The notes under the pieces were generated by a model. That model did no database searches, had not been told where the DNA came from, and saw only the letters and a program-made list of their open reading frames with translations. From an uncultured Gammaproteobacteria bacterium (GTDB taxonomy: Bacteria > Patescibacteriota > Patescibacteriia > UBA11705 > DATKZF01), in contig CAYPKD010000002.1 in NCBI GenBank assembly GCA_964411255.1, positions 98,141 through 162,140 on the forward strand: a DNA stretch of 64,000 nt. The letters are read 5' to 3'. Shown here piece after piece: positions 8,671-36,877 of the stretch; position 1 is the stretch's first letter; every line of letters starts with the position of its first letter. A program made the translations under genes and the position numbers.

Positions 8671-9809
8671 AAAAAACCTTATTAGTAACAATTGATTTTC
8701 CTCCAATGATTGGCGGAGTGGCAAATTACTGGGCTAATTTGAATAAGAATTTACCAAGTGAAGATATAGTGGTATTAGCTCCAGAATATGATGGCTCCCA
8801 TGGTTTTGACATACATCAAAATTATTTAATTTATAGAAAAAATTTGATTTCAAAAATAAAGTGGCTTTGGCCTAAATGGCTGCCGCTTCTTTATTTTATG
8901 TACAGGTTGATAAAGGCAGAAAAGGTAGAAAGAGTAATCGTCGGTCAAATATTGCCAGTGGGTACCGCAGCTTATATTTTACATAAGTTCTTGAAATTTG
9001 ATTATATAGTTTCTGCACATGGGATGGATGTAAAAACTCCGGAAGTTGGATCTAGGAAATATAAAATTATGAAAAAAGTTTTAAATAAAGCCTGCCATGT
9101 TATTTCCAATAGTCAATTTACAAAAGGCGCCATTGAAAAACTGGGTGTGCCAGCTAAAAAAATTAGCATCGTGTATCCTTGCCCAAATATTCAAGCAATT
9201 GAAATTGACCCAGTTTTGCAGGAAGATATTGTTAAGCAGTATGATCTTGAGGATAAAAAAGTTTTATTAACCGTAGGCAGATTAGTTGAAAGAAAAGGAC
9301 ACGACCGGGTGATTCAATCTTTGGTAAAAGTGGTACAAAGGTTTCCTGATTTGCGATACATCATAATTGGCAAAGGATCAAATCTTAGTAATTTAAAATA
9401 TTTGGTTAAAAGATTGAGATTAAAAAAACACGTTATATTTTTAGAAAGAGTTGATGATGACGAATTGCAAATATTTTATGATTTGGCAAATGTTTTCATA
9501 ATGACTTCTAGAGAGCTTAGCTGCGGCGATGTCGAAGGATTTGGGATTGTCTATTTAGAGGCGAATAATTTTAAAAAGCCGGTTATTGCAGGCAGAACTG
9601 GCGGAGCAATTGAAGCGGTTGAGCACGAAGTTAATGGTCTATTAGTTAATCCAGATGATTTTAGGCATATTGCCAAGGCAATAACAAAATTATTTAAACA
9701 TCGTGATTATGCGCAACAATTAGGCGAGAAAGGGTTTGAAAGAAACCAAAACCGTTTTTGCTGGCCAGTACAGGCTGAAAAATTAGAAAGAATAATATGT
9801 GCGGAATAG
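8667..9809 (+). CDS. glycosyltransferase family 4 (GT-B, group 1)
   Basis: C-terminal EGFGIVYLEANNFKKPVIAGRTGG motif characteristic of GT4; 4-nt overlap with upstream gene. Confidence 0.8.
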   Translation: MKKTLLVTIDFPPMIGGVANYWANLNKNLPSEDIVVLAPEYDGSHGFDIHQNYLIYRKNLISKIKWLWPKWLPLLYFMYRLIKAEKVERVIVGQILPVGTAAYILHKFLKFDYIVSAHGMDVKTPEVGSRKYKIMKKVLNKACHVISNSQFTKGAIEKLGVPAKKISIVYPCPNIQAIEIDPVLQEDIVKQYDLEDKKVLLTVGRLVERKGHDRVIQSLVKVVQRFPDLRYIIIGKGSNLSNLKYLVKRLRLKKHVIFLERVDDDELQIFYDLANVFIMTSRELSCGDVEGFGIVYLEANNFKKPVIAGRTGGAIEAVEHEVNGLLVNPDDFRHIAKAITKLFKHRDYAQQLGEKGFERNQNRFCWPVQAEKLERIICAE

Positions 9810-11620
9810 TAGGCTATATTGGGAATAAACAAGCACTCCCTATTTTATTAAACGGTCTGCGCCGTTTAGAATACCGCGGCTATGATAGTGCTGGTGTTTG
9901 TTTATATAATTCTGAAGGTTTGGAAAGGGTTAGGCAGGTGGGAAAAATTGAAAGTTTGGTTAATGAAACAAAAAAACATAATTTATCAGGTGATTTTGGA
10001 ATTGCCCATACTCGCTGGGCCACTCATGGTGGAGTTACAGAAGAAAATGCCCATCCTCATTTTGATTGCCAGAACCAAATTGTACTTGCACATAATGGAA
10101 TTATTGAAAACTACAGAGAAATTCAGGACAGATTAAAAAGTAATCACACCTTTAAATCTGAAACAGATTCAGAAATTTTAGCTCATTTAATTGAGGAAAA
10201 TTATAATGGAGATTTTAGACGGGCAGTTGAGGTTTCATTAAAGCAGATTCGTGGAACGTATGGCTTGGCCGTGATGCATAAGAACCATCCAAATACTTTA
10301 ATTGCAGCCAGAATGGGTAGCCCTTTAGTGATTGGATTGGGTGAAAATGAATATTATCTGGCTAGCGATGCTACACCAATGTTGGCTTATACAAAAAAAG
10401 TAATTTTTCTAGAAGACGGAGAATTAGCTGAAATTTCCAGAGAAAATCTTGACGTGTTTAATTTGAAAGACGAGCAGATTACAAAAGATATTCAGGAAAT
10501 TGAGTGGGATGCAGAGCAAGCTCAGAAAGGCGGATTTGATCATTTTATGCTAAAAGAAATTCATGATCAGCCGGCAGTCTTTTTAGATGCTATTAGAGGC
10601 AGGGTGAATAAAGATAATGGTATTGCCCATTTGGGTGGTTTGAACATGACAGAAAATGAGATGAGAAAAATAAACAGAATTGTTTTGATTGCCTGCGGGA
10701 CTGCATCTTATGCGGCAATGGTAGGGAAATATATATTTGAAAGGTTGGCAAACATTCCAACAGAAGTGGACGTGGCAAGTGAATTTCGATATCGAGATCC
10801 TTTAGTTAATGAAAATACTTTAGTGTTTGCCATTTCTCAATCAGGTGAAACAGCAGATACTTTAGCTGCTCTCCGTGAAGCAAAAAGAAAGGGCGCTTAT
10901 GTACGCGGAATAGTAAATGTAATTGGTTCAACCATTGCCAGGGAAACAGACGGTGGTACTTATATGCATGCTGGCCCTGAGTTAGCTGTTGCTTCGACCA
11001 AAGCTTATACAAACATGGTGGCTGTATTATTTTTATATGCTTTACAATTTGGCAGATTGCGTAATTTAACTTTAATAAAAGGTCAGAGATTAATTGATGA
11101 GCTTTTTGAAATTCCGGAGAAAATGAAAAAAGTTTTAAATTTATCTGATCAAATAAAAAACCTGGCTGAAAAATACAGGAATTATATAGATTTTCTTTTT
11201 CTTGGCAGAGGTATTAATTTCCCAGTTTCCCTTGAAGGCTCACATAAGTTAAAAGAAATTTCATATATCCATAGTGAGGCATATCCGGCAGGGGAGATGA
11301 AGCATGGCATGAATGCATTGCTCAGCGAGCAAATGCCAGTGTTTGGTATTATTACCAAAAATCAATTGTATGATAAGATGCGCAGCAATATTGAAGAAGT
11401 GAAAGCACGTAAATCAAAAGTGATTTTATTGGCAAATGAAATGGATGAAAAAGCCAGACAATTGGCAGATGATATTATTTTTATTCCTGAAGCAAATTAT
11501 ATGCTTGAGCCAATATTAAATACCATACCTTTGCAGCTTTTTGCTTATTATGTCGCTACTTTGCTTGGCAGGGATGTGGATAGGCCCAGAAATTTGGCTA
11601 AAAGTGTGACTGTGGAATAG
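9797..11620 (+). CDS. glmS: glutamine--fructose-6-phosphate aminotransferase (isomerising)
   Basis: N-terminal MCGIVGYIG class-II amidotransferase Cys, two SIS domains, 607 aa. Confidence 0.95.
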   Translation: MCGIVGYIGNKQALPILLNGLRRLEYRGYDSAGVCLYNSEGLERVRQVGKIESLVNETKKHNLSGDFGIAHTRWATHGGVTEENAHPHFDCQNQIVLAHNGIIENYREIQDRLKSNHTFKSETDSEILAHLIEENYNGDFRRAVEVSLKQIRGTYGLAVMHKNHPNTLIAARMGSPLVIGLGENEYYLASDATPMLAYTKKVIFLEDGELAEISRENLDVFNLKDEQITKDIQEIEWDAEQAQKGGFDHFMLKEIHDQPAVFLDAIRGRVNKDNGIAHLGGLNMTENEMRKINRIVLIACGTASYAAMVGKYIFERLANIPTEVDVASEFRYRDPLVNENTLVFAISQSGETADTLAALREAKRKGAYVRGIVNVIGSTIARETDGGTYMHAGPELAVASTKAYTNMVAVLFLYALQFGRLRNLTLIKGQRLIDELFEIPEKMKKVLNLSDQIKNLAEKYRNYIDFLFLGRGINFPVSLEGSHKLKEISYIHSEAYPAGEMKHGMNALLSEQMPVFGIITKNQLYDKMRSNIEEVKARKSKVILLANEMDEKARQLADDIIFIPEANYMLEPILNTIPLQLFAYYVATLLGRDVDRPRNLAKSVTVE

Positions 11621-11667
11621 GGATTTGACACTTTTTTTATAGTTTGATATACTTTTTTTACAATCAA

Positions 11668-11752
11668 ATACCGCAGACAGTAAGGGCCGAAAGGCTTAAA
11701 AATTCAACCTTACCGAGGTACAAACATTTAGTATTTTGTATTTTTGCGGTAT
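11668..11752 (+). promoter_or_regulatory. structured leader upstream of rplJ (possible L10 autoregulatory leader)
   Basis: ATACCGCA (11668-75) pairs with TGCGGTAT (11745-52), enclosing GTAAGG/CCTTAC and GCCGAAAGGC hairpins; the L10-leader assignment is by position only. Confidence 0.3.
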
Positions 11753-11813
11753 TTTTCCCGCAATTTTTTATTGATATTTATTCGTAATAAATTTATAAAA
11801 TATTTGTAATTTT

Positions 11814-12491: not shown

Positions 12492-12911
12492 ATGGCAGAA
12501 GAAAAAAAGACTGAGGAAAAAAAAGACGTAGAAGTTCCAGAGAAATTTAAAAAATTAGTTGATGAAATTGAAAAAATGTCAATTTTAGATTTGTCTGAAT
12601 TAGTAAAAATTTTAGAAGAAAAATTTGGCGTATCAGCTGCTGCTCCAGTGGCTGCCATGGCCGCTGCTCCTGCTGCAGGAGAAGATGCTGCTGAAGAAAA
12701 ATCAGAATATGATGTTGAATTAGCAGGTGCAGGTGAAAATAAAATTGCAGTTATCAAGGTGGTGAAAGAAATTGCCGGCATTGGATTAAAAGACGCTAAA
12801 GATTTAGTTGACGGTGCACCAAAAGTTGTTAAGGAAAAAGTAAAGAAAGAGGAAGCTGAAGAAATGAAGAAAAAGCTTGAAGAAGCTGGCGCAACAGTAA
12901 ATTTGAAATAA
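12492..12911 (+). CDS. rplL: 50S ribosomal protein L7/L12
   Basis: Ala-rich hinge [16 protein letters not shown] and C-terminal [28 protein letters not shown]. Confidence 0.95.
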
Positions 12912-12958: not shown

Positions 12959-13023
12959 GTTTGCTTTGGATTCCATGAATTAAACTACTGCTACGAAGTG
13001 TACAGAAACGTAGATATTGACAA

Positions 13024-13052
13024 AATGCACTAAATTTGGTTAAAATAGAACC
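13024..13052 (+). promoter_or_regulatory. sigma70-like promoter of the 1475-aa repeat-protein gene
   Basis: TTGACA 13024-29, 17-nt spacer, TTAAAAT -10; a TATTTGACAA motif recurs at 13064. Confidence 0.35.
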
Positions 13053-13094
13053 TTAATGTTATTTGACAATCAAACCTTGGCACAGGAGCGTTAA

Positions 13095-16000
13095 ATGCCG
13101 AAAATGGCCAGAAATTACGCATATTATGATTGCTGGCAAAAGGCTAGTATAGCTCTATTAATACTTGATATTCGAAGCAAAGAGGAATATGAAAATCGTT
13201 ATGAAGAGGATTCTTGTCTGCCAATTGATCCAGAAAAATTTTATCCGGGTTTTCCAGGTTGGGACCAATTTCTTGCTCAGGAAGAATTAGCTGTTCCAAA
13301 AGAACTTTCAGACAGAGCTGAACCTGAAAAAGAAAAGATTCAAAGGCCAGAAAGATATGCTACCTGGCAGCAAGCCAGTGAAGCTGTAAAGGTGCTTGGA
13401 ATTAAAAGTAGGACTCAATATAATAGAAGATATAGAGAAGATCCAATGCTGCCATCATCTCTTAATAACTCTTATCCAGATTTTCCTGGAGCAGAAATAT
13501 TTTTTGGTGTAAAAAATGAAGGGAAAAGAAAAAAGAATTTTTATCCTACATGGCAGCAAGCAAGTCAGGCAGTTCAGAAATTAGGTGTTAAAAGTTCATC
13601 ACATTATTTGAGGTCGTATAAACAAGATGATAGGCTGCCTTCTGCTCCACGCACATACTATAAAGATTTTCCCGGCTGGGATAAATTTTTAGGAAGAGAT
13701 GAAGTTAAAAAAGAGCAAATTCAGCCACCTGAAAGATATGCTACTTGGCAGCAAGCCAGTGAAGCAGTAAAAAAACTTGGCATTACAAGTTGGCATCAAT
13801 ATCACAGGCGGTATAGAGAAGATCCAAAGCTTGGTTCAAATCCAAATATTTTATATGAAGATTTTCCTGGAGCTGAAATTTTCTTTGGAGTAAAACGAAA
13901 ACCCAGGAAGAAAAAGAATTATTATTCCAGTTGGCAGGAAGCAGGCAAAGCAGCACAGATGCTGGGTATTAAGAGCTCACTTCAATATGTTCGCAAATAC
14001 AAACAAGATATCAGATTGCCTTCAAATCCAAATGTTAAATATAAAGATTTTCCAGGCTGGGATGTATTTTTAGGCAAAGCAGAAATTGAAGAGCAAACTG
14101 TTGAGACAGAATATTATGCCACCTGGCAGCTGGCCAGCAAGGCAGCTGTCAATCTTGGTATTAAAAGTCTTGTTAGCTATTGCTCAGGTGCGTATATGGA
14201 AGATGATAAATTGCATCCAGATCCGCAGACATTTTATGAAGACTTTCCTGGTTGGAAAAAGTTTTTGGGAATTAAGGGAAAAAAGAAAAAAGGGAATGAA
14301 AAAAAATACTCAACTTGGCAGGAAGCAAGTATGGCTGCTAAAAAGTTAGGTATTAAAACATCTACCCAATACTGTATAGAAAAAAGATATAAGCAGGACT
14401 TGAGATTGCCATCCAGTCCTCAAACCTATTATTCAGATTTCCCAGGCTGGGGTGTCTTTTTAGGAACGCATGAAGTAAAAGGCGCTGCAGTGGCTAGAAG
14501 GAAGAAAAAAAAGTATCCCACTTGGCAGCAAGCAAGCAAAGCAGCTCGAAGACTTGGGATCAGCAGCTCGACTGAATATATGCGTGGGAAAGCATATAAA
14601 AAAGATTCACTTCTACCATCAAATCCGCAACAGTATTATCATGATTTTCCAGGCTGGGGTGAATTTTTAGGAACAAATAATAAGCGAGGTGCACCTAGAA
14701 AAAATTTTTATCCTACTTGGCAGCAGGCAAGAAATGCAGCATTGAAGCTGGGGATCACCGCTTCCACTGGATATATCAATGCAGAACAGTATAAGTTTGA
14801 CCGACGATTGCCTTCTAACCCTCAGCTCTATTACGAAGATTTTCCTGGTTGGAAAAAATTTTTAACTCCAGAAGTTAAAAGTGTAGAAATAACTGATCAA
14901 ATGGCTGCATCTATTGAAAAAGGATTAGATAAGAAAGATGGATTTGCTTCACAAAAGAGTAGTGATGTAAAAAGGCCTAAAAATGGATATTATGAGGACT
15001 GGGAAACTGCCTCTCGTGCTGCAATAAAGCTTGGTATTACGACTCAAGAGCAGTATGAAAATAATTGTCATAAAGATTCTAGATTGCCGAAAAAACCAAA
15101 GCTTTGTTATTCTGAGTTTAAGGATTGGGATGAATTTGAAAAAATGGCTCAAAATGAATATTATTCTACTTGGCAGGAAGCTAGCGAAGCAGTTCAAAAC
15201 ATGGGAATTAAATCCTGGAGTGAATATTCTGTACGGCAGAACGAAGATGAAATGTTACCTTTGCATCCTGACAAAGAATATGAAGATTTCCCAGGATGGA
15301 GAATTTATCTTGGAAAAGAAAATGATACTCAAAATGGTTTAAGTTACAAAAAAGACAAAAGAAAGAGTGGCAAGAATTTATATCCTACTTGGAAAGAAGC
15401 AAGCAAGATCGTGAGAGAAATGGGTATAAAGACTTCTAAACAATATCGAGACAGGTATAAAGAAGATCCAAGGCTGCCATCAACTCCTGAGAGATATTAT
15501 AAAGATTTCCCAGATTGGGATAAATTTTTTGTCAGAGAAAAAAATAAAAAATACACTACTTGGCAAGAGGCCAGTGAGGCTGCACGAAAATTGAATATAA
15601 AAAGGCGGGAAGATTATTTCAAAGAATATGAGAGAGATCCTAGGTTACACAAATATCCAGCAGACATATATAAAGATTTTCCAGGATGGCGCGTTTTTCT
15701 TAATAATAGAAGACCTCGCTATGCTACCTGGCAGGAAGCAAGTCAGGCAACAATTAGATTAGAAATTTCCAGCCGAGACGAATATTTGAAAAGATATACA
15801 GAAGATGAGAAGTTAAGGTGTGCTCCATATCAAGTATATGAAGATTTTCCAGGATGGAGAGTTTATTTGGGCAAAGCTGAGAAGGAATCAAAGGAAGATA
15901 AAGAACAAGAGAGAACAGGGGATGATAATGTGAGTAAGCGAAGAAAACGGGAAGATATGTATCAAACCTGGCAAGAAGCTGCAGTAGCAGCTCAAAAGGT

Positions 16001-17522
16001 TGGAATAAAAAGCGAAAAAGAATATAGAAAAAGATATAAATCTGATCAAAAGTTGCCTAGCTCTCCAGAAACAATATATTTAGATTTTCCAGGTTATGGA
16101 ATTTTTTTAAGCAATGTGAGTAAACGAAGAAAACGGGAAAATATGTATCCTACCTGGCAAGAAGCTGCAGTAGCAGCTCAAAGATTGGGAATAAAAAATA
16201 GAAGAGATTATGGAAAAAAATACAAACTTAATCAAAGGCTACCCTGTGACCCTTCCAGCGTTTATATGAATTTTCCAGGTTATGAAATTTTTTTAGGTAA
16301 TGTAGGTAAGCGAAGAACACGGAAAAACTTATATCAAACCTGGCAAGAAGCTTCAGCAGCAACTCAGAGGCTTGGAATAAAAACTCAAATAGAATATAGA
16401 AAGAGGTATAAATCTGATCAAAAGTTGCCTAGCTCTCCAGACACATTATATTTTGATTTTCCAGGATGGCGAGTTTATTTAGGAAAAGTTGATAAAGAAT
16501 TAAATGAAACCGAAAAAACAGACAGAACAGGAGGTGACGATGTGAGTAAACGCAGAAAACGGCAAGACTTATATCAAACCTGGCAGGAAGCAGCCGTGGC
16601 TGCTCATAGGCTGGGAATAAAAAGCAGAAGCGAATATAGAAAGAAATATAGGTCTAATCAAAAATTGCCTGGAGCTCCTGACAACTTCTACAAGGATTTC
16701 CCCGGATGGAAAGTGTTTTTAGATGAAACTTCTTTAAATTACTATCCAACCTGGCAGGAAGCCAGTGAGTCTGCGCAGAAGTTGAAGATTCAAACCAGTA
16801 CAGAATATGAACAAAGGTATAATTTGAACAGCCGATTGCCAGCTGATCCTTCTGTCTACTATAAAGATTTTCCAGGTTGGATTATCTTTCTAAACGTAGA
16901 GAAAAAGGATTATTATCTTACCTGGCAGGAAGCCAGCGCAGCAGCGCAGAAAATGATGATTTTTAGTGAAAGCCAATATAAAATGGTTTATAAGGCTGAT
17001 CCAAGGTTGCCTTCAACTCCAGATAAGTTTTATGATGATTTTCCCAGTTGGTTGATATTTTTAGGCAAAGTTGATGCAGATTCATTAGTATTAATGCCGC
17101 ATGAAAAAATGGTAAAGCCAAATTATGATCAAATGGTTGAAATGCTTGAGGGAACAAATAAGTTTTTACCAGTTAATGAATTATTCAGATATTCGGGGAT
17201 AATATTAGCAAGTAAATCTGATACAGCCGTTGATGATATGATGCTCGATTTGTTGCGGGTTAAAATAACTACAGCAATTTATAAAGTATTTGAGATCAAC
17301 ATGTGTTCAGTTGAGGTGAAAAAGTATGATGATAAGTATCGCATTGACATTGTGTTTGGCAAGCTTCAAGTTGGAGCAACATCTGTCAGCACTGAAGTGC
17401 AGATACCGCTAGGATTTCCGCATAATGCTGTATTGTATTTAGAGGCGATTGATCCTGTCCTAAAGCAAGAATTACCAGATTTTGAGTTTAATGAAATAGT
17501 GGTTTTCATAGGTGAGTCATGA
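13095..17522 (+). CDS. giant repeat protein: ~20 tandem ~55-aa repeats (TWQEAS-A--KLGIK...Y...Y-D-RLPS-P--Y-DFPGW--FLG) plus a ~150-aa C-terminal domain shared with the 17748 gene
   Basis: 1475-aa ORF; repeats read directly from the translation; repeat resembles the integrase repeat unit with conserved LPS motif (Pfam Integrase_1-like, recalled from memory, unverified). Confidence 0.85.
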   Translation: MPKMARNYAYYDCWQKASIALLILDIRSKEEYENRYEEDSCLPIDPEKFYPGFPGWDQFLAQEELAVPKELSDRAEPEKEKIQRPERYATWQQASEAVKVLGIKSRTQYNRRYREDPMLPSSLNNSYPDFPGAEIFFGVKNEGKRKKNFYPTWQQASQAVQKLGVKSSSHYLRSYKQDDRLPSAPRTYYKDFPGWDKFLGRDEVKKEQIQPPERYATWQQASEAVKKLGITSWHQYHRRYREDPKLGSNPNILYEDFPGAEIFFGVKRKPRKKKNYYSSWQEAGKAAQMLGIKSSLQYVRKYKQDIRLPSNPNVKYKDFPGWDVFLGKAEIEEQTVETEYYATWQLASKAAVNLGIKSLVSYCSGAYMEDDKLHPDPQTFYEDFPGWKKFLGIKGKKKKGNEKKYSTWQEASMAAKKLGIKTSTQYCIEKRYKQDLRLPSSPQTYYSDFPGWGVFLGTHEVKGAAVARRKKKKYPTWQQASKAARRLGISSSTEYMRGKAYKKDSLLPSNPQQYYHDFPGWGEFLGTNNKRGAPRKNFYPTWQQARNAALKLGITASTGYINAEQYKFDRRLPSNPQLYYEDFPGWKKFLTPEVKSVEITDQMAASIEKGLDKKDGFASQKSSDVKRPKNGYYEDWETASRAAIKLGITTQEQYENNCHKDSRLPKKPKLCYSEFKDWDEFEKMAQNEYYSTWQEASEAVQNMGIKSWSEYSVRQNEDEMLPLHPDKEYEDFPGWRIYLGKENDTQNGLSYKKDKRKSGKNLYPTWKEASKIVREMGIKTSKQYRDRYKEDPRLPSTPERYYKDFPDWDKFFVREKNKKYTTWQEASEAARKLNIKRREDYFKEYERDPRLHKYPADIYKDFPGWRVFLNNRRPRYATWQEASQATIRLEISSRDEYLKRYTEDEKLRCAPYQVYEDFPGWRVYLGKAEKESKEDKEQERTGDDNVSKRRKREDMYQTWQEAAVAAQKVGIKSEKEYRKRYKSDQKLPSSPETIYLDFPGYGIFLSNVSKRRKRENMYPTWQEAAVAAQRLGIKNRRDYGKKYKLNQRLPCDPSSVYMNFPGYEIFLGNVGKRRTRKNLYQTWQEASAATQRLGIKTQIEYRKRYKSDQKLPSSPDTLYFDFPGWRVYLGKVDKELNETEKTDRTGGDDVSKRRKRQDLYQTWQEAAVAAHRLGIKSRSEYRKKYRSNQKLPGAPDNFYKDFPGWKVFLDETSLNYYPTWQEASESAQKLKIQTSTEYEQRYNLNSRLPADPSVYYKDFPGWIIFLNVEKKDYYLTWQEASAAAQKMMIFSESQYKMVYKADPRLPSTPDKFYDDFPSWLIFLGKVDADSLVLMPHEKMVKPNYDQMVEMLEGTNKFLPVNELFRYSGIILASKSDTAVDDMMLDLLRVKITTAIYKVFEINMCSVEVKKYDDKYRIDIVFGKLQVGATSVSTEVQIPLGFPHNAVLYLEAIDPVLKQELPDFEFNEIVVFIGES

Positions 17523-17547
17523 CTTAATAAGTCGTGGCTTTTTTATT
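17516..17547 (+). terminator. intrinsic terminator after the 1475-aa gene
   Basis: GTCATGACTTA-ATA-AGTCGTGGC hairpin (with G-U pairs) followed by TTTTTTATTTG; near-identical terminator after the paralogue at 19863. Confidence 0.5.
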
Positions 17548-17747
17548 TGTAAAAACAGATCAACCCCTCGACTTCGCTCGGGGCAGGCAGATCAGCAACA
17601 GATATAAAACTTTATCAAAAAGGTGAGTTATTTGACTAAATTTAGGTAAATTTTATTAAAACAACTATAATATTGACAAAATAATAAAAATAGGCTAAAC
17701 TCTAATGTTACTGATATTTGACAAATTACGCATTCAGGAGGAAAAGA

Positions 17748-19862
17748 ATGCCAAAGACGCAGAAAAAGAGCAGAAAAAGCAAAGCAGATTTTTACCCAAC
17801 CTGGCAGGAAGCAGGTGCAGCAGCACAGAAATTAGGTATACGTACTTTGGGCGAGTATAATATTCGTTATCATGAAGATCCTCGTTTGCCATCAAACGCT
17901 TATGAGGTTTACGGTGAAGATTTCCCTGGAATGAAGGTTTTTCTGGGTGAAGCTTATAAGCCAAGAAATCGGAGTGTGAAAAGGCACTTTTACCGAACGT
18001 GGAAAGAAGCAGCGCAAGGAGCTGCTAATTTGGGCATTATGTCCAGAAGGCATTATAGCGGTAAATACCGTGATGATCCTTGGCTGCCTTCTCAGCCACA
18101 TCGCCAGTATAAGGATTTCCCTGGCTGGGATGAGTTCATGAGAACTGTCCAGCAGATTCGGGAAGAAAATGCCAAGAAAGAGGGTAAGATTGTCAAAAAG
18201 GATTATTATCCCACTTGCAAGCAGGCAAGTGACGCTGCCCAAAAGCTTGGCATCATGTCGCTTCGCGAATATCAAAGGCGTTATAAAGAAGATCCTCGTT
18301 TGCCTTCAACTCCTTCTGTCAAGTACAAAAATTTCCCAGGCTGGATTATTTTTCTTGGCAAAGACAAGGATGTCGCAGAAGAAAAATCGAAGAAGGATAA
18401 GCCTAAGCAGGATACGCCTAAGCTTGATAAACCCAAACTGGACAAGCCTAAGCAGGATAAGATCAAGAGGCGTAAAAATTATTTGACCTGGCAAGAAGCT
18501 GCAAAAGCAGTTGCTAAGCTGAATATCACCAGTATGCCAGAATACCAGAAACGCTGGAAAGAAGATCCTCGTCTGCCTGGCAATTTGTATGGCAGTTATA
18601 AGGACTTTCCTGGTACTGAAAAGTTCTTTGGCTTTGCAGCTTCTATCAAAGAGGCAGAATCAGAGCCAGAGGAAAATATGGCTGAGCCTGAAGAGGTAGA
18701 GGCTGCAACGTATTCAACTTGGCAGGCTGCTGCAGAAGCAGCAGCTGAGCTGGATATTATGACTCGTGAAGAGTACATAAAGGCTCATAGTGAAGATCCA
18801 AAATTGCCTGCTGACCCTGAAGCAGATTATGAGGATTTTCCTGGCTGGGACACTTTCTGTCAGTCTGCTGAAAAAGCCAGTACTGCGCAAAAGTCTGCTC
18901 CAAAGAAAAAGGGAAAGAAAAAGATCTACCAATCTTGGAAAGCTGCCAGTAGAGCCTGCCGAAGACTTGGCATCACCACTCGAGCTGAATATTTGAAAAG
19001 GTATAAAGAAAATCCCATGCTGCCTTCTCATCCTGAGAGAAGTTATAGGGATTGGCCAGGCTGGTCTGCTTTTTTCAATGGCGAGAGAGAAAGCAGGCCC
19101 AGGTTCCCGCCCAGAAGGAAATTCTATCCGACCTGGCAGGAAGCTCGAGAAGCTTGTCGTCGGCTGGATATTAGGGAACGCAAAGAATATGTAATTAGGT
19201 ACAGAGAAGATGAATTTCTTAACTCCAAACCTGAGCGATATTACGAGGATTTTCCTGGCTGGGATATCTTTCTTGCTCCAGTAGGAAAAGATCCGGCTGA
19301 AAAGGCTGCTAAGCCTACAAAGGCAAAGAAGCCTGAAAAGGCCGTATCGAAAAAGGCAACACCGAAAAAGGCTAAGCCCAAGGCAGTTGAGCCAGCTGAT
19401 CAGCCTGAAAAGGTTGAGGCAGAGCCTGGTGAAAAAGCAAAGAGCAAATTGGATTGGTTTGAGACTCTGGCTGAACCCTTGGCTGCAATAGAAGACTGGG
19501 ATGGTCAGCTGCTAACTTTACCGCCAAATTGGGTTTTTGTCTATTCAGGGGTTTTCAAGGCCGTTTCTGATGTAATGCTTGATGAACTGCTGTTGCAAAA
19601 TGCACGTTTGCAGATCATCATGAGCATGCACAAGGTATTTGGCCTGAATTTCTGTGAGGCAAATATCAGAAAAATCAAGGATGATTATCGACTTGATATT
19701 TCCTTTGCCAATATCTCAGGCAAAGGTGTTAATACCAATTTGGTACGCCCACTAGGCTATCCGTATTCAAGTATTCTGTTCACTGAAGTCATTCAGAAAG
19801 TGGCAGAAGAAGATTTTTCAGACTTTGTATTTTGGGAATGTTTGGTTTTCACCAAACGATAA
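17748..19862 (+). CDS. repeat protein paralogue (7 repeats, Pro/Lys-rich linkers, same C-terminal domain as the 13095 gene)
   Basis: the ORF track starts at a TTG at 17718; the ATG at 17748 follows an AGGAGG RBS; C-terminal ~150 aa align with the C-terminus of the 1475-aa protein; codon usage is visibly more GC-rich than neighbours. Confidence 0.8.
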   Translation: MPKTQKKSRKSKADFYPTWQEAGAAAQKLGIRTLGEYNIRYHEDPRLPSNAYEVYGEDFPGMKVFLGEAYKPRNRSVKRHFYRTWKEAAQGAANLGIMSRRHYSGKYRDDPWLPSQPHRQYKDFPGWDEFMRTVQQIREENAKKEGKIVKKDYYPTCKQASDAAQKLGIMSLREYQRRYKEDPRLPSTPSVKYKNFPGWIIFLGKDKDVAEEKSKKDKPKQDTPKLDKPKLDKPKQDKIKRRKNYLTWQEAAKAVAKLNITSMPEYQKRWKEDPRLPGNLYGSYKDFPGTEKFFGFAASIKEAESEPEENMAEPEEVEAATYSTWQAAAEAAAELDIMTREEYIKAHSEDPKLPADPEADYEDFPGWDTFCQSAEKASTAQKSAPKKKGKKKIYQSWKAASRACRRLGITTRAEYLKRYKENPMLPSHPERSYRDWPGWSAFFNGERESRPRFPPRRKFYPTWQEAREACRRLDIRERKEYVIRYREDEFLNSKPERYYEDFPGWDIFLAPVGKDPAEKAAKPTKAKKPEKAVSKKATPKKAKPKAVEPADQPEKVEAEPGEKAKSKLDWFETLAEPLAAIEDWDGQLLTLPPNWVFVYSGVFKAVSDVMLDELLLQNARLQIIMSMHKVFGLNFCEANIRKIKDDYRLDISFANISGKGVNTNLVRPLGYPYSSILFTEVIQKVAEEDFSDFVFWECLVFTKR

Positions 19863-19891
19863 GTCATGATTTAATTAATCGTGGCTTTTTT
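19863..19891 (+). terminator. intrinsic terminator after the 704-aa paralogue
   Basis: GTCATGATTTA-ATT-AATCGTGGC hairpin plus TTTTTTATTATTTG. Confidence 0.5.
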
Positions 19892-20056
19892 ATTATTTGT
19901 TACAAGATAATACCCTTCGACCTCTCGACCCCGCTCGAGGCAGGCAAGCTCAGGGCAGGCAAGATTGGAATATGATTATTTTATTTGCTGTGTATGCCCC
20001 GAATAAATGACCCGAATGAAATTACTACAGATATCCCGGATTACTGATCCTGATGC

Positions 20057-20085
20057 TTGACAATTTTATTAAAATATATTATTAT
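20057..20085 (+). promoter_or_regulatory. promoter of the mini repeat gene (TTGACA / TATTAT) with upstream CCCCGAAT / CCGAATG motifs at 19997-20018
   Basis: TTGACA 20057-62, 17-nt spacer, TATTAT 20080-85. Confidence 0.35.
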
Positions 20086-20125
20086 GATTTAACTCAATCA
20101 ACCCACCAGGACAAGGGAGGTAAAT

Positions 20126-20329
20126 ATGTCAAGAAATGGTGAAAATACGGATTGGAGCTGGCAAGAAGCCAGTGAAGCAGCTCAAAAGCTGGGCATTGAA
20201 ACCAGGGATGAATACAGAAGCCGAACACCGCATCATGGATTGCCAGATGATCCTGTTGCTGAATTTTCCAACTTTCCGCGAAAGTCAAATGGCGAACCTA
20301 ATTGGGAGTTATTTTTAGGAGTAAAATAA
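20126..20329 (+). CDS. 67-aa protein consisting of a single copy of the repeat module
   Basis: SWQEASEAAQKLGIETRDEY...LPDDPVAEFSNFP...WELFLG; GGGAGG RBS 8 nt upstream; own terminator. Confidence 0.6.
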   Translation: MSRNGENTDWSWQEASEAAQKLGIETRDEYRSRTPHHGLPDDPVAEFSNFPRKSNGEPNWELFLGVK

Positions 20330-20330
20330 A

Positions 20331-20359
20331 ATCCACTAGACAAAACTAGCGGATTTTTT
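20331..20359 (+). terminator. intrinsic terminator
   Basis: ATCCACTAG-ACAAAA-CTAGCGGAT hairpin plus TTTTTTATTTG. Confidence 0.55.
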
Positions 20360-20427
20360 ATTTGTTACGGATACCCCGAATGTTCTGACTTTTTATTCGA
20401 ATGACCTGAATATTATTAATTGTTAAT

Positions 20428-20456
20428 TTGACAAGAATGACGAAAACTGTTAAAGT
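20428..20456 (+). promoter_or_regulatory. promoter of the helicase gene with upstream CCCCGAATG at 20375
   Basis: TTGACA 20428-33, 17-nt spacer, TAAAGT. Confidence 0.3.
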
Positions 20457-20491
20457 TTGATATTGTTTCATTGACAATCAAGGAGCAAATC

Positions 20492-22294
20492 ATGTTTGAA
20501 CTATATGACTATCAGAAACGGCAATTAAAGGCAATTAATAAAGCATTTGAAACTACAATGCGAGCATTAATGGTAATGGCCAGCGGTTTGGGAAAAACTG
20601 TTGTTGCCGCATTTTGGGCAAAAGATCAGGTCCAAAATGGAAAAATGCTTTTCCTCTGCCATGAGAACGAAATTCTTGCTCAGGCATTGAGTATTTTTAG
20701 GCAAGTGCTAGGTGAAACTGTTTCGCTTGGCGTATTTACTGGCCAGCAAAAAGACTATGAAGAAGTTGATGTACTTTTTGCTTCTTTCCAGACAATGCGT
20801 GAATGGAAACAAGCCTTTTTCCCAAATGAGTTTGCCACTATCATTGTAGATGAATCTCATCATGGCCAAGCGCCGACCTACAAAGAGGTAATAGAATATT
20901 TTACTCCTCAAAAGCTTTTTGGCATGACAGCCACACCAGATCGAATGGATGAAAAAGACATTCGTGAGATTTTTGGTGATGAGGTTGTTAATCTATCGCT
21001 TGAAGAAGGCATTGCCAAAGGCTGGCTAACGCCAGTTGAATATTATGTAATGAATGATGGGCTGAATACCAAGGTTCTGCGAGAAATCGTTGATAGAGTA
21101 TTAAAAAAAGGTGAGCGTATTTCAATTAAACAACTCAATGAAACCATTTTTATTAAAGCTCGGGATGAAGAGATCGCTCGAATCATTCAGGGGCGTGGCA
21201 GAAAGACAATTATTTTCTGTGAGCGCATTGAGCATGCAGAAGAATTTGTTCAGCATTTGCCAAAAGCAGAGTGTTTTCACTCTTGTAAAAGTGCACATCA
21301 CAATGAACTTGTTTTGAAGGCTTTCCGAGATGGAACACTGCAATATATTTTAGCAGTTGATAAATTCAATGAAGGAATTGACATTCCTGATGCTGAAATG
21401 GTTGTGTTCCTGCGCTGTACAGACTCAAGAACTGTCTTTTTGCAGCAGTTGGGCAGGGGATTGCGAAAGATTGAGGGTAAGGATAATGTTGTAGTCCTTG
21501 ATTTTGTTGCTAACTGTGAACGGCTAAAAATAGTTAGAGATATGGCCGGAAGAGTAAAATCAATGGCTAACGGCCAGGCTTTGTGTGAAGATGTGCTAAA
21601 GGTTTCAGGCAAAGCATTTGATTTTCTATTCACTGATAAACAGCAGGATATTTTTACAATTCTTGAAACAATCAAGCCTCGATATATCTCAGATATCCCG
21701 CATCTTTTGGCTGAATATTCAGATAAAAACGAATTGCCGCCAGAGCAAGTGAGTGCCGGCACATCCAAAAATCTGTGGTGGAAATGTCAAAAAGTGAAAT
21801 GTGGATATGAATGGCAGGTTAGTGGGAATTGTAGAATATCTAAAGTGACAGGATGCCCCGCCTGTGCTAATCGTATTGCCACTTTAAACAATAGTTTGGC
21901 GGTAACTCATCCAGAATTAGCAGAAGAATATTCTGATAAAAATCAGTTCACTGTTGATGAGGTAGTTGCAGGCACAAGAAAAAAGTTGTGGTGGAAATGT
22001 AAAACATGCAATCATGAATGGCAGGCAGCAGGAGATAGAAGGGTTCACGGAACAGGCTGCCCAGTTTGCGCAATAAAAAGAACAATAGAAAAACGCAGAA
22101 AGAAATTTTTTCAGACTTGGCAGGAATCTAGTCGATTGGCAATATCCTTAGGAGTAAAAAATTGGCATGAGTATAGAAATATGTATAAAAAGGATCCAAG
22201 ATTGCCTTCTGTTCCACAAACATTTTATTTAAATTTTCCTAAAAAGCCAAACGGCCGTCCTGATTGGGATTTGTTTTTTGGGAGGAAAAAATAA
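20492..22294 (+). CDS. SF2 DExH-box helicase (ResIII / type-III restriction res-subunit-like N-terminus plus Helicase_C) fused to two zinc-ribbon modules and one C-terminal copy of the repeat module
   Basis: motifs GLGKT (I), DESHH (II), TATP (III), QQLGRGLR (VI); two repeats of LAEYSDKN...WWKC-K-C-GYEWQ...GCP-C (recalled as DUF4379-like zinc ribbon); final 60 aa TWQESSRLAISLGVKNWHEY...LPSVP...FLNFP...WDLFFG; ATG 20492 (RBS AAGGAG) preferred over the TTG at 20471. Confidence 0.85.
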   Translation: MFELYDYQKRQLKAINKAFETTMRALMVMASGLGKTVVAAFWAKDQVQNGKMLFLCHENEILAQALSIFRQVLGETVSLGVFTGQQKDYEEVDVLFASFQTMREWKQAFFPNEFATIIVDESHHGQAPTYKEVIEYFTPQKLFGMTATPDRMDEKDIREIFGDEVVNLSLEEGIAKGWLTPVEYYVMNDGLNTKVLREIVDRVLKKGERISIKQLNETIFIKARDEEIARIIQGRGRKTIIFCERIEHAEEFVQHLPKAECFHSCKSAHHNELVLKAFRDGTLQYILAVDKFNEGIDIPDAEMVVFLRCTDSRTVFLQQLGRGLRKIEGKDNVVVLDFVANCERLKIVRDMAGRVKSMANGQALCEDVLKVSGKAFDFLFTDKQQDIFTILETIKPRYISDIPHLLAEYSDKNELPPEQVSAGTSKNLWWKCQKVKCGYEWQVSGNCRISKVTGCPACANRIATLNNSLAVTHPELAEEYSDKNQFTVDEVVAGTRKKLWWKCKTCNHEWQAAGDRRVHGTGCPVCAIKRTIEKRRKKFFQTWQESSRLAISLGVKNWHEYRNMYKKDPRLPSVPQTFYLNFPKKPNGRPDWDLFFGRKK

Positions 22295-22367
22295 ATTCCC
22301 TTAGTAAAACTAAAGGGAATTTTTTTTAAATTTTATTGTTAATCAACCTACCAATCTACCAATCTCG

Positions 22368-24500
22368 TTATAAGTGTTTAAGATTAATTGAAATAATTTT
22401 TTGACCATCTATCAAATAAATCTTTCTATTTCCCTCATCCACTGCCATATCTGAAACAGACTGGGCATTTTCAATCTGATATTGGATTACCACCAGACCA
22501 TTTTTGCCATAAACAATAACTCTGTTTGTGTTTTTGTCTAAAACATAAATATAACTTGAATCAACATCAGTATATATCTTGCTTGCGCTTTCAATCTTTG
22601 GCTCAATGTTTTGAGCAGAAAAGCTCTGCTTATCTCCGCTAAGGAATTTTTGGATTGTACCATTTGAACTCAATACATAAATATCGCCATCAATGGCCAT
22701 TGAAGTGGCGCTGCTAAAATCTGCTGCGTCATTTACCCAGCTAGCTGGAGGACCATAAGAATTTGACCCAACATTTCTGAGTTTATAGATCTGATTATCA
22801 GCAGGTGATAAAAAGTAAAGATGAGTGTTGTATACGTAAAAATCAGTCCATGAGCCCTCTGAATCCAGACTTACTTTTTCAAATTGATCATTATCAGTAG
22901 AGTATTGATATAGACTATTATTTTCAAATAATATATATAAAGTTTGATCATCAAAAGCAAACTGGCTTAAAACATTTGCGTTTATATTAGTTTCCACTGT
23001 AGATAAAATTTGCGCTGAAGATAAATTAATGGAATTAAGATTGTTTTGATCAGATACGATTAGGATTTGATCGTTTAAAACCTGCAGCTTCATTGAATCC
23101 TGGTTTAGATTGGCTAAAGTAATAAGATCTTGCGCCTGAACTGATTCAAGCTTTAATAGTTTATTATTTAAAGCCTTGTATTGATTCTCAAGTTTTACAA
23201 TATTTTGATTTTCCTCTTCAGATTCTTTTGGTAGTTTTGAAATCAAATCTTTTACTTCAGCCATTAAATTTAAGCTTTTATCAGTATTTCTGAATAAGAA
23301 AGCAGCTTCAGCCTGATTTAATTTGGTTTCAATTGCTTTAATTGAGCTGTTATATGCTGCATCGTCTTTTTTTGTTTCCTGATTTTTATATATCCAGACT
23401 ATGCTTAAGGCAAAGACTATAACTAATGCAATTATTAAAATTATAATAATTTTTTTTGTTTTTGGAGCCATTGGCTTTTCTTTTTTTTCTGATTTTGATT
23501 CAGTAGTCACTTTTTTTCCTTTTGATATGCCAAGTTTATTGAGAATGCTTTTTATCAAACTTGGAGAGCTTCGTATTTCGTCAACAGCAATACCTTTTGG
23601 TTTTTTTTGTCTGCTAAATATAGATATGAACTTTTTTCCAATATTTTTAAATTTTTGTTTAATATTTATGCCAATTGCTGGGGTGAGAAATTTTTCAGTA
23701 TCCATTTGAGTATTGACCAGCGTATTGATTGATTGCTGGGATGCTTTTTCCTGTTCAATTAATTGAAGATCTTCTTGTTTTATAAAAATAGCAGAAAATG
23801 TTTTGGCATACCCTTGAGGTCTTTTTTGCAAAAGAATTTTAAAATCTTCGATAAGTTCTTTTACTGGTCTGTTTGAAGCTATTTGGTTTATTTTTTCAGC
23901 AGAAAAAAATCTGGCAAATCCTTCATTAGAGATGATTAATGCGTCAGGCAGAAAGATTTTACCAGAAATAATGCTGGCAAAAATTTTGACTTTATTTTCA
24001 GGAGAATTTTCAGATCCAGCTAAAATGTCAATTATTTTATAGTTTGATTTTTTAGTTTTATGGATTAAAAAACTTTGGATATTACCCCGATGGCTGAATA
24101 TTATATCAGATTCAATATTGCTTGGCTTTATCACAGCCACTAAAAAGTTAATATTTTCTAAAATTAGCTGAATTTGGCCATTTTGTATCAATTGGAGCAC
24201 TTTTTCATTGGTTTTTTGAAGCGCATGTTCAAAAACTGTCTCTAAATTCAATTTTTGCGGATCAGGAGAGGTAACGATTTGCCTGTAATAATGGTCTTTT
24301 AAGCTGGAAATTATGGTATTTGAGATTTTCTGTCCATGCTCAGTGGGGGTAGCATTAATTTCAATAATTCCTAAAACATGGCCGCCAAATTTTTCTTTGC
24401 CATCTGGGAAAATAATAAAATTTTCACAAAAATAATCATTTTGCACTTGATTTGAAGGAAGAAATATTTCTTCAATCCTTAGTGCTTTTTGTTTGTCCAT
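22368..24500 (-). CDS. hypothetical membrane protein: N-terminal cytoplasmic domain, one TM helix, coiled coil, C-terminal beta-propeller-like repeats
   Basis: 710-aa ORF; TM segment IIIILIIALVIVFALSIVWIY; Gln/Leu-rich heptads; C-terminal repeated IYVLD / IYLID-type strands. Confidence 0.65.
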   Translation of the reverse strand: MDKQKALRIEEIFLPSNQVQNDYFCENFIIFPDGKEKFGGHVLGIIEINATPTEHGQKISNTIISSLKDHYYRQIVTSPDPQKLNLETVFEHALQKTNEKVLQLIQNGQIQLILENINFLVAVIKPSNIESDIIFSHRGNIQSFLIHKTKKSNYKIIDILAGSENSPENKVKIFASIISGKIFLPDALIISNEGFARFFSAEKINQIASNRPVKELIEDFKILLQKRPQGYAKTFSAIFIKQEDLQLIEQEKASQQSINTLVNTQMDTEKFLTPAIGINIKQKFKNIGKKFISIFSRQKKPKGIAVDEIRSSPSLIKSILNKLGISKGKKVTTESKSEKKEKPMAPKTKKIIIILIIALVIVFALSIVWIYKNQETKKDDAAYNSSIKAIETKLNQAEAAFLFRNTDKSLNLMAEVKDLISKLPKESEEENQNIVKLENQYKALNNKLLKLESVQAQDLITLANLNQDSMKLQVLNDQILIVSDQNNLNSINLSSAQILSTVETNINANVLSQFAFDDQTLYILFENNSLYQYSTDNDQFEKVSLDSEGSWTDFYVYNTHLYFLSPADNQIYKLRNVGSNSYGPPASWVNDAADFSSATSMAIDGDIYVLSSNGTIQKFLSGDKQSFSAQNIEPKIESASKIYTDVDSSYIYVLDKNTNRVIVYGKNGLVVIQYQIENAQSVSDMAVDEGNRKIYLIDGQKIISINLKHL

Positions 24501-27316: not shown

Positions 27317-30300
27317 ATGAAACAAAAAACAAACATTTGTAAAAAAACTGCCTTAATTATGGCAGGTTTTATTTTTGCCATTTCAATTACAGCATTAATC
27401 GTTGCTGCGCCGGCAAACGCGCAGTCAGTTACCCCTGAGGGGGATAATTCTTATTTGGGCGGAATTGGAACTGATTTCTCACTAGATGATGTCTCTATAA
27501 ATTCCAGTATTCCAATTTATGGCTCAATGTCTGAGGCCAGGTATAATTTTGTACTTTTTAATGTGCAGAGAGCTCCTGGGGCTTCTGCTGATTCGACGTT
27601 TCTAACCATTACAGGATTAATTCCAGACACATCCTATAATGTCCATGAGGACGGGTTTGTACCCCTTGTTTACACTTCAGACTCTACTGGTGAGATTAAT
27701 TTTAACCAGGATATAGGTACTCCTCATACTTTGACGATTAAAACCGACAGCTCAATTTTTGAGATAACCGCAGATTCCACTTGCGGGGATGTTGAAGCTT
27801 TTGGTGGTGTATGTGATGATTCTGGACCAGAATTAAATGTAACCATGCCTGCATCATGTATGATTAATGACTCTGTTTGGATTCATGATTTTTCTGGCAA
27901 TATTTATTTTAACGATTGCACTATCACTGCAAAGCCAGGCTATGGTATAGCCTTGTATCTTACAAATGTCAGCGGAATTATGCGAGACGTAAAAGTAAAA
28001 GCAGCAAGGACGGGAATAGCCTTTGGGGCTGGTACGAAATATTTATATATAGAGAATGTTGAAGTGACACCTACTATAGGCGATGGATTGGAACGAATTG
28101 GTTTTAATTTTGTTGGCCAGGATGTTGAAGAGATTGCCGTATACGACTATGTGTGTAATTTCTTTGAATTACCTTCTGATGTTAACAAGGGAGATATTTG
28201 CGTTTTAGCTCAGGATGGACAATCAAAGATTGATTTTGCATTAGGCACTATTTCTTATTCTGATAGGGGATTTATTTTTGAGAATTCAACTTTTTCATCA
28301 TCTGAAATACAGATTGTCAATACTCAGATTTATCTTAATTATAGCGAGTCTATCGGTCTTAGTTTAAGAAGAGCAAACATCATAAAGTCTACTAATAATA
28401 ATTATCTTTCTTACCCAGGTAATGACATTCCATTTTATAAGGCGATTGAAATAAAAGATGTTCCTTTTGGTGTTTCAGTTAATGATTTTATAAGTATTTC
28501 TGACAGATTTGGCCTTTGTCAATATGGGGCAACTGTAGAAAATGGAAGTAATATTAATTTTATTTCGCCTCACGAGGATCAAGAGACTAGTGCTCAAATT
28601 GCTGGTATTGTTGCTATTGATTCTGAAAATGTGAATATTGTCGGTACTGCAGCTGAACCTTCACTTTTTTACCCAAAGATCTTTGCAAATGCATTTGAAT
28701 ATGAAAACACAACAGGTATAGTAGGTAATTACATGAACGCGACTAGTACGGGTAGGGATCAAACAATTTTTAGAACTGATGAAGGCAATATTATTCTTTC
28801 GACTGACATTGGCTATTATGATGCGGCAGTTGAAATATCAGAAGGCGTGCTGCCTCCTGAAATTTCGCATCTATCAGATGATAGCATTCGTATTAGGAAT
28901 ATAGGGGACGATATAGATATATTATTTTATGATACTTATGGCGTGCCAATTGCACAAGCGCGTCTACACCCCGGAACTGAATTTATGGTATTTCATAATG
29001 AAGACGGCGGTGTTACTGTAGTTAATACCAACCTAGGGTCAGAAGTTACGGTGTTTAGATTGTATGACGATCCTGGTTGGTTTGTTGGCGCTTCTCCAAT
29101 CGGTACTGTGATATCAATGCCTGGAGATGTAATGTCATTTAATTCAGGAAATTCAGTGTATGTAAAAAACGAAGCTGGAAATTGGGATTTGGAGTTATAT
29201 GATAGCAATAGCAATTGGGTAATGAATGTTCCAATGAGCCAGGGAGATCATGTAATGGTTGAGGGAAATGTTGATGGCAGCACATCATTAACCAATGTAA
29301 ATACTTCAGCCCAAGATGTTTATGCTATTGAATGGGTAGAATCAGCAGGTATGCTGACCTTAGATCAAAATGAAACATTATCGGCAATTTCTGGTGTTGA
29401 TGTAGTTAATGTAAATGTAGCTGATGGAGCGATTGATTTAGATATATTAGATGTTGGTAGCCAAATTGCTATTGCCAAAACAGTATTAGCTCAAGGTAGT
29501 CAGGCCAGTCTTGCTGTTAATACTGCCGGTGGCACTGAATTAGTTAATCTAGGCACTGGTGTTTTTGATATAATAATAGATGATCTTGCACAATTCAGTC
29601 TTGAATCAACTGAAGGCGCTGTTTTTTCAGGTACTGTAAAAAAAGATATTACACCGATTTATGGCAATTTTGACATTGAATTTTTAGACAGCCAGGATAC
29701 AGTTGCCAGAGTGATAATGAATGATCCGACTCAGACAGCCAGACTGCAAAGAGATCCAGAAGGCTATGCTAATGTTCAAAATATTTCTCAAACAGAGATA
29801 ACAGTTGAAGGATATGATACAGCCAGAATTAGTAGATCAAGGCTTGGCTATGGAGACACGATTGGATTTAAGAGAGGATCTTTGCAACTAAAAGATACAT
29901 TAGGTTCCTTTGATGTTGAATATATTGCTTTAAATGGCGGAATTGTTGGTGTTACAACATTGCAGAATTTTGAAAAAATGAATTTAACTCATGTTGGCCA
30001 GACTGATGTGCAGGTAGAAAATATTGGCACTGTATCATTTGATATATTGAATCTGTTTACTAATCAGACTGAAACCGTTATTTCAGGTCAAACAACTGTT
30101 GTTATTCCTGGCCCTACTGGCCAGATTGAAGCAAAGGTTAAGGGCGGACATCCAAAGAAAGCGCTGGAATATGCAACTGTGAAAACTTATAATAAAAATG
30201 ACAGCTGTGTTTCTGAATATTTTCCAAATGCAGGACAAGTAAATGAATTTTGCGAACCAGTAGCTATGTGCGTTACTGGAGCAGATGGTAAATGCTTAAT

Positions 30301-36385: not shown

Positions 36386-36877
36386 CTTTATGGTATAATT
36401 AGTAACAGAGAAACAAAGAAATTTATAAAAAGATATATTACATGTCTAATACAATTTTTCGTTTTAGAGAATTCCCTGTATATAACGATGCCAGGAAATT
36501 TAGAGCAGATTTGAAAAAATTATCAAAAGAAAAATTTCCTTCAGAAGAACAATACATTTTAAGAAGACAGCTTTGGCGAGCATTAGATTCAATAATATTA
36601 AATATTGCAGAGGGAGCAGATAAGCATTCTGATAAGGATTTCAGTCATTATCTAAATCATGCTCTTGGATCAATTAATGAAGTTATCGGATGCTTAGATT
36701 GCGCCTTAGATGATTATTATATTGAAATCACTGAACATAAAAGGTATTTAGAACAAGCTGAAAACATTATTAAACAATTAAAAGCATTTATTTCCAAGCT
36801 TAGAAAAGATGATAAACGTTTTTAGTTTTTATTTGTGTTTCTTTGTTTCTATGTGCTTTTGTTAATTTTATGCCAAA
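36386..36877 (+). repeat. ~0.5-kb direct duplication, copy 1 (promoter plus four-helix-bundle gene plus 5' end of next gene)
   Basis: near-identical to 39193-39697 (few substitutions, one 16-bp tandem insertion in copy 2). Confidence 0.9.
36442..36825 (+). CDS. four-helix-bundle protein (23S rRNA IVS protein / Avd-like family)
   Basis: LDSIILNIAEGADKHSDKDFSHYLNHALGSINEV matches the family core motif (NIAEG...S.KDF); extended -10 TATGGTATAAT at 36388-36398. Confidence 0.7.
   Translation: MSNTIFRFREFPVYNDARKFRADLKKLSKEKFPSEEQYILRRQLWRALDSIILNIAEGADKHSDKDFSHYLNHALGSINEVIGCLDCALDDYYIEITEHKRYLEQAENIIKQLKAFISKLRKDDKRF

Follow-up and report, generated by a model that had tools for sequence, protein, structure and literature searches.

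The present study deals with a 64,000-nt stretch of contig CAYPKD010000002.1, from a tiny, uncultured bacterium of the Patescibacteria type (the window, whose positions serve for all gene and site coordinates below) and, within it, with an island of four consecutive plus-strand genes, A to D, located between rplL (12492-12911) and a convergent gene of 710 amino acids (aa) on the minus strand (22368-24500). All four genes encode the same repeat, INT_rpt, found as arrays of 20 and 7 copies in proteins A and B, as a single copy in the mini-protein C, and as a single copy at the C-terminus of D, a superfamily 2 (SF2) helicase. We consider it reasonably probable that this island arose when an accessory module of helicases expanded in this lineage, the repeat having passed from a common type of helicase, where it sits in the tail, into three adjacent genes, and that no dedicated system of several genes is involved. 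The four genes need not occur together, as the helicase and genes A to C each occur without the other in the closest relatives. Judging from the sequences compared, A to C would mark a hotspot of gene birth proper to this lineage, and the island would not be a defence system conserved as four genes. Both families, that of the repeat and that of the helicase, are already catalogued, though uncharacterised; new here are the arrays of 20 and 7 units ending in an orphan ferredoxin-like domain, the single-unit mini-protein, and a locus history that can be reconstructed. The combination of A to D has no description in the searchable literature, in agreement with the first-pass annotation of this DNA, which had not recognised it as a described system.

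The INT_rpt module and the proteins built from it

A profile hidden Markov model (HMM) was built from the repeats of A and B and searched against all six reading frames of the window. It recovered exactly 29 copies, of which 20 belong to A, 7 to B, and one each to C and D, with E-values of 1e-11 to 1e-29, far beyond chance, and none outside the four genes; a count by regular expression agreed with it. The first-pass annotation had seen four consecutive plus-strand genes sharing one module in about 20, 7, 1, and 1 copies, and the open reading frame (ORF) list, Pfam, and the repeat HMM all bear this out. It had also assigned the module to an integrase repeat family, rightly, under the name Integrase_1, wrongly, the family being Pfam PF14882, INT_rpt ("integrase repeat unit," formerly PHINT_rpt). 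The PF14882 gathering score of 26.5 bits is exceeded in A (342.8 bits, E = 1.3e-104, 13 stretches) and in B (100.8 bits, E = 4.7e-29). The copy in D scores 21.8 bits, under that threshold, and reaches 51.3 bits (E = 3e-17) with the window-derived HMM; C has no Pfam match and scores 30.5 bits (E = 9e-11) with the same HMM. Pfam describes INT_rpt as occurring in up to seven copies. Sub-threshold matches of DUF3721 (PF12518) and DUF6723 (PF20484) fall on INT_rpt units (gene A, aa 1018-1032, ~16146-16190), and these two families may be fragments of the INT_rpt repeat.

Gene A (13095-17522, 1,475 aa) contains its 20 copies at 13122-17072, followed by a nonrepeat C-terminal domain of ~145 aa (~17085-17519). 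Gene B (17748-19862) encodes 704 aa from an ATG with an AGGAGG Shine-Dalgarno sequence (714 aa from the alternative start TTG 17718 of the mechanical ORF list) and carries its seven copies at 17790-19283, followed by the same C-terminal domain. Gene C (20126-20329) encodes 67 aa behind a GGGAGG Shine-Dalgarno sequence and consists of one copy. Folding of the repeat predicted a small four-helix unit, to which no solved structure is related, with a per-repeat confidence (pLDDT) of 93.6, and the multi-repeat model reached a global score (pTM) of only 0.58, indicating units that are flexibly linked. INT_rpt is thus modelled as an autonomous unit of ~55 aa in a beads-on-a-string arrangement. Neither the searchable literature nor the PDB holds a function or a structure for INT_rpt, and a repeat-profile search of PDB sequences returned only chance matches to enterotoxin K.

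A profile of 545 repeats displays a conserved aromatic/proline core, a mean net charge of +2.5 per unit, and recurrent basic positions (10, 14, 18, 24-26, 28, and 32), the copies having diverged to a mean identity of 46%. Proteins A and B are accordingly basic, with net charges of +51 (pI 9.3) and +25, respectively. Their linkers are rich in Lys and Arg, those of B having Lys/Ala/Pro tracts like the tails of histone H1; one low-complexity linker of the (K/Q)DKPK type in B corresponds to a 15-nt tandem repeat of 4.8 copies (18390-18461). The N-termini of both proteins pass straight into the first repeat, with neither a signal peptide nor a transmembrane (TM) segment, and the maximal 19-residue Kyte-Doolittle hydropathy is 1.16 for A and 1.10 for B. 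A secreted or cell-wall-binding repeat protein, the reading that the first-pass annotation had set against its own, is therefore ruled out for A and B.

Outside the window, INT_rpt is fused to enzymes that act on DNA. The closest parallel is the Gamma-Mobile-Trio (GMT) islands, whose GmtZ/VPA1269-family integrases (Mahata et al., bioRxiv 10.1101/2023.03.28.534373; the repeats are not discussed there) are of the tyrosine recombinase type. GmtZ shows the same ~55-aa repeat in tandem, with the common pattern Y-x-T-W-Q-E-A ... L-P-S-x-P ... Y-x-D-F-P-G-W-x-x-F-L-G, as an array of eight copies N-terminal to its Integrase_2/Phage_integrase domain (PF13009, E = 3.8e-70 in the Marinobacter GmtZ), and it belongs to a three-gene mobility module. 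In contrast, the island has no recombinase, far longer arrays (20 copies), and an orphan ferredoxin-like domain at their end. The repeat fold was also found by Foldseek among viral models, in SF2 helicases of the giant viruses Bodo saltans virus, Klosneuvirus, Terrestrivirus, and Catovirus (probability 0.97 to 1.00, E of 2e-4 to 0.23). INT_rpt is carried by thousands of Patescibacteria helicases, by giant-virus helicases, and by GmtZ integrases, which mobilise defence islands. A phage collection searched by tblastn gave one weak match only, and none of the 80 IMG/VR loci with related helicases contains INT_rpt, leaving a phage origin of the island unsupported. The repeat-profile search of a set of 5.8 billion proteins returned matches of 323 aa at most, too short to show arrays of more than 10 copies.

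From the fusions with helicases and GmtZ, the interchange with zinc ribbons described below, and the basic charge, we infer that the most likely role of INT_rpt is to attach the protein that carries it to nucleic acid, probably DNA. The first-pass annotation had already pointed to DNA binding, and a role in binding nucleic acid stands as the most economical inference from the fusions, the charge, and the lack of an export signal. In D, the repeat would help to load the motor, while A and B, cytoplasmic and strongly basic, could act as multivalent proteins that bind, bridge, or coat DNA, their C-terminal domain supplying oligomerisation or some ligand or effector function. Should INT_rpt bind DNA, the way in which helicases of this family, and possibly GmtZ, locate their substrate would be explained, and a new small nucleic-acid-binding fold would be added to those known.

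Two other roles for the arrays can be considered. Tandem FF domains (Prp40 and TCERG1/CA150) resemble INT_rpt, as modelled, in their size, in their helix-helix-short helix-helix order, and in their beads-on-a-string arrangement. By analogy, INT_rpt could be a protein-protein module and A and B adaptor scaffolds recruiting, e.g., a polymerase, SSB, or a recombinase, and the divergence of the copies is what would be expected if each of them bound a different partner. We regard this possibility as unlikely: the recurrent fusion partners are DNA enzymes, arrays and zinc ribbons are interchangeable, and repeats and linkers are strongly positive. A bolder and still less probable proposal is that A and B are the founders of a new class of multivalent, chromatin-like proteins organising the chromosome of ultra-small Patescibacteria. 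Each diverged repeat would then provide its own DNA contact, so that the array reads or bridges extended DNA tracts, in principle like other modular repeat readers, and the orphan ferredoxin-like domain would couple the array to oligomerisation or to a small-molecule signal. Whatever its role, the locus offers a natural dissection of INT_rpt, with 1, 7, and 20 copies in separate proteins that are predicted to be independently expressed.

Helicase D and its family

Gene D (20492-22294) encodes 600 aa from ATG 20492, a more likely start than TTG 20471 (607 aa) because of its AAGGAG Shine-Dalgarno sequence and of its agreement with the start of the orthologue P0001. The motor (~aa 1-350) comprises ResIII (109 bits) and Helicase_C (59.7 bits) domains with the Walker A motif GLGKT and the DExH box DESH, making D an SF2 helicase of the ResIII/DExH type. 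Two DUF4379 treble-clef zinc ribbons (~21722-22072; PF14311, 99.4 bits in two stretches for a gathering score of 24.5 bits) and the C-terminal INT_rpt (22106-22288) follow. The DExH helicase with two zinc-ribbon modules of the first-pass annotation is thereby supported. Zinc ribbons of this type occur also in phage HNH endonuclease families.

More than 5,600 proteins are related to D at E ≤ 1e-10, mostly from Patescibacteria, and the named top matches are nearly always assigned to Patescibacteria, Paceibacteria, or Moraniibacteria. Annotated as "zinc-ribbon domain-containing" or "integrase repeat-containing protein," they share a motor of ~400 aa and differ in their tails, which contain a varying number of DUF4379 modules, of INT_rpt modules, or a mixture of both. 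P0001, 77% identical to D, ends in five zinc ribbons, and the tails of P0044, P0079, P0083, and P0111 hold six to eight INT_rpt units; the identity of D to many other members is 43 to 60%. D has the same motor and modular tail as this family, from which it is set apart by its mixed tail (two zinc ribbons and one INT_rpt) and, among the loci listed, by being the only example with separate INT_rpt genes adjoining. We therefore assign D to a family of Patescibacteria SF2 motors, very large and so far uncharacterised, whose tails would be assembled from interchangeable DUF4379 and/or INT_rpt modules.

The first-pass annotation had coupled the repeat proteins and the helicase into a surveillance, defence, or mobile-element system. 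In such a nucleic-acid surveillance or anti-phage system, A, B, and C would sense or bind foreign DNA on which D would act. Several features are in keeping with this scheme. The motor of D is closest to that of SauUSI (PDB 7clg, E = 5.5e-48), a type IV restriction endonuclease (PMC7913695), ahead of RadD (6JDE, E = 2.9e-22) and then type I HsdR; in PADLOC-DB v2, D matches the mREase_IV, PbeA, and type I REase models. INT_rpt occurs also in GmtZ, the integrase of islands with defence cargo. However, the PADLOC matches of D are at the level of the motor only, and A, B, C, and the 710-aa protein have no match in that database. D shares with SauUSI, RadD, and HsdR an SF2 ATPase motor of the ResIII type and aligns only to residues 232-563 of 7clg, i.e., the motor; as D begins at the region of helicase motif I and has neither the PLD nuclease nor the SRA-like target-recognition domain of SauUSI, a type IV restriction enzyme of the SauUSI type is ruled out. 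The same applies to RadD and to an EcoAI-type HsdR, D scoring far under the NCBIfam equivalog cut-offs (114.3 versus 720 bits for NF053632 and 134.5 versus 550 bits for NF046051, respectively). Moreover, domain scans of A to D disclosed no nuclease, methylase, integrase, or other effector domain.

The genomic contexts of the family likewise speak against a defence function. In many Patescibacteria, the helicase is a stand-alone gene among housekeeping genes (ribosomal proteins, cell division, dnaB/recR, or the mraZ-rsmH-PBP-Mur cluster). No INT_rpt was found outside the helicase ORF in the nine other INT_rpt-helicase loci listed (including L003-L006, L018, and L020-L022), and no separate repeat protein lies within ±10 kb of the relatives' helicases among the loci examined. 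Two seemingly stand-alone INT_rpt proteins of other Patescibacteria (L014, 6314-8900, and L016, 7003-8840) are the tails of frameshifted helicase genes, which may be pseudogenes or assembly errors. At one of the INT_rpt-helicase loci (L005, a 0.9-Mb Patescibacteria contig), five tandem GIY-YIG genes of 82 aa lie near the helicase (18519-20007).

The locus in relatives and a model of its history

The nearest relatives of the window are metagenome-assembled Patescibacteria, in which the same locus could be compared. In L001 (GCA_049319825.1), the order is GT4-rplJ-rplL-helicase-713 aa (minus strand)-210 aa-YkuD, with flanks as in the window, a helicase 77% identical to D, and no A, B, or C. Conversely, L009 to L011, at ~89% DNA identity, have A, B, and a mini-protein followed directly by the 710-aa gene, the window bases 20327-22367 being missing. 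In these strains, the mini-protein is a C/D hybrid: its N-terminal region corresponds to C, and the 15 residues at its end (PNGRPDWDLFFGRK) correspond to the D tail. We conclude that the helicase was deleted when the C repeat recombined with that of the D tail. In all relatives seen (L001, L007, and L009-L011), the 710-aa gene is the constant limit of the variable locus on its right-hand side; it is conserved, with one central TM segment and no Pfam, PADLOC, or PHROG match.

The comparison of neighbourhoods suggested by the first-pass annotation thus came out against a coupled system, repeat proteins and helicase not co-occurring in L001, in L009 to L011, or at the nine further loci. A variable hotspot at which close strains differ in the presence or absence of genes and in repeat copy number would also fit a defence island, as would the atypical base composition of B. 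Nevertheless, the closest relatives possess the helicase without A to C or A to C without the helicase, and no other helicase locus listed has an INT_rpt neighbour. This independent variation, together with the lack of an effector, weakens the defence and system readings most, and we hold a joint surveillance or anti-phage system for improbable.

The genes that persist are maintained rather than junk, as the ratios of nonsynonymous to synonymous substitution rates (dN/dS) against the L009 orthologues are 0.20 for A, 0.22 for B, and 0.21 for C, indicating purifying selection; that of the 710-aa gene is 0.08. The L009 orthologue of A lacks repeats A15 to A17, which form the only recent sub-array of A (15927-16465; period of 186 nt, 2.9 copies, 75% match). 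In its 3' third (~18950-19862, the last ~300 codons), B hardly differs from its counterpart in the ~89%-identical strains, with a synonymous divergence (dS) against L009 of 0.011 in the C-terminal domain and of 0.38 in the rest of the gene. B has also a GC content at third codon positions (GC3) of 0.40, versus 0.24 to 0.30 in neighbouring genes. The raised GC3 and the near-identical 3' third point to recent exchange, and the latter suggests, at the level of sequence, recent recombination between strains.

The C-terminal domain shared by A and B, noticed as a ~150-aa nonrepeat domain in the first-pass annotation, was recovered as ~145 aa with 35% identity (E = 6e-27). It returned no match in a word-index homology search. 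HMMER, run exhaustively against 1.84 billion representative proteins, yielded only four: an orthologue of A, an orthologue of B, and two proteins, of 123 and 133 aa, in which the domain stands alone. A ferredoxin-like fold is predicted. One stand-alone gene lies directly 3' of rplL, in L097; the other, in L007, is convergent on a homologue of the 710-aa gene and is complete, since stop codons lie upstream of it. From these two positions, one adjoining rplL and one facing the 710-aa homologue, the small gene appears to be a resident of the gap between rplL and the 710-aa gene in relatives.

We propose the following model for the accessory-module expansion. In an ancestor, INT_rpt repeats would have been fused to the small resident gene between rplL and the 710-aa gene. 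This fusion would then have been duplicated to give A and B, and the homologous promoter and terminator regions of the two genes indicate that the whole transcription unit was copied. Their arrays would have grown afterwards to 20 and 7 copies. C would descend from an old duplication of part of the helicase tail, to which it is related as an ancient paralogue (~60% DNA identity) and with which it shares an unusual derived insertion, FP-[RK]K-x-NG-x-P-x-W. A to C would not need the helicase, because the sister strains that deleted it by recombination between the C repeat and the D-tail repeat have kept them. The locus would thereby provide, in a reduced genome, a clean example of gene birth in which a domain was captured, the gene duplicated, and its repeats multiplied.

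Several points weigh against this model. The order of events, with repeats joining a resident gene, was reconstructed by comparing four loci, of which two are very short contigs (L097, 724 bp, and L007, 2.6 kb). Confidence in the model of the C-terminal domain is no more than moderate (pLDDT 69), and the folds that it matches are generic ones. Because of the atypical GC3 of B, part of the island could have been imported instead of being made in situ. Finally, the genome scan for helicase relatives under-samples Patescibacteria.

The island might also be seen as the cargo or remnant of a mobile element related to the GMT islands, given that INT_rpt is best known from GmtZ/VPA1269 integrases and that related genomes differ in what lies between rplL and the 710-aa gene. 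Yet Pfam and NCBIfam scans detected no recombinase or integrase domain (PF13009/PF00589) in A to D, which excludes membership in the Gamma-Mobile-Trio. No transposase, GmtY, or GmtX is present, and the window has no tRNA. A limited comparison of the island's five intergenic stretches among themselves showed no flanking repeat. Since local duplication and homologous deletion account for the changes at the locus, a mobile origin seems very improbable to us.

Transcription signals and surroundings of the island

According to the expansion model, each of A to D would be transcribed on its own. The first-pass annotation had given each gene a TTGACA promoter and a terminator, and such sites are found at each, as consensus matches only. 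The promoter-like sites, all on the plus strand, lie at 13017-13046 for A (TTGACA-18-TAAAAT), 17673-17701 for B (TTGACA type), 20057-20085 for C (TTGACA-17-TATTAT), and 20428-20456 for D (TTGACA type). Terminator-like hairpins with a T-run are located 3' of A (17514-17540) and 3' of B (19861-19887), both on the plus strand, and a hairpin with a T-run was also found 3' of C (20328-20357) and between D and the convergent 710-aa gene (22298-22316).

Upstream of the island, an L10 leader (RF00557, 74 bits; 11653-11778) precedes rplJ. A terminator and then the island follow rplL, where most bacteria have rpoB/rpoC instead. The gene glmS (9797-11620) is inserted between the GT4 glycosyltransferase gene and rplJ and is absent there in the syntenic L001, thus constituting a second indel at the locus.

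The window as a whole has a low GC content (~0.33) and contains ribosomal-protein genes, cell-envelope genes, and several large proteins without a Pfam match, among which are two large ORFs of 1,036 aa (27317-30427, plus strand) and 1,719 aa (56373-61532, minus strand). Further downstream of the island, a gene of 127 aa is present in two copies (36442-36825 and 39262-39645) that are 99% identical and 2.8 kb apart. Each copy is followed by three genes only 24 to 30% identical to their counterparts, an arrangement that resembles a duplicated cassette with a conserved first gene.

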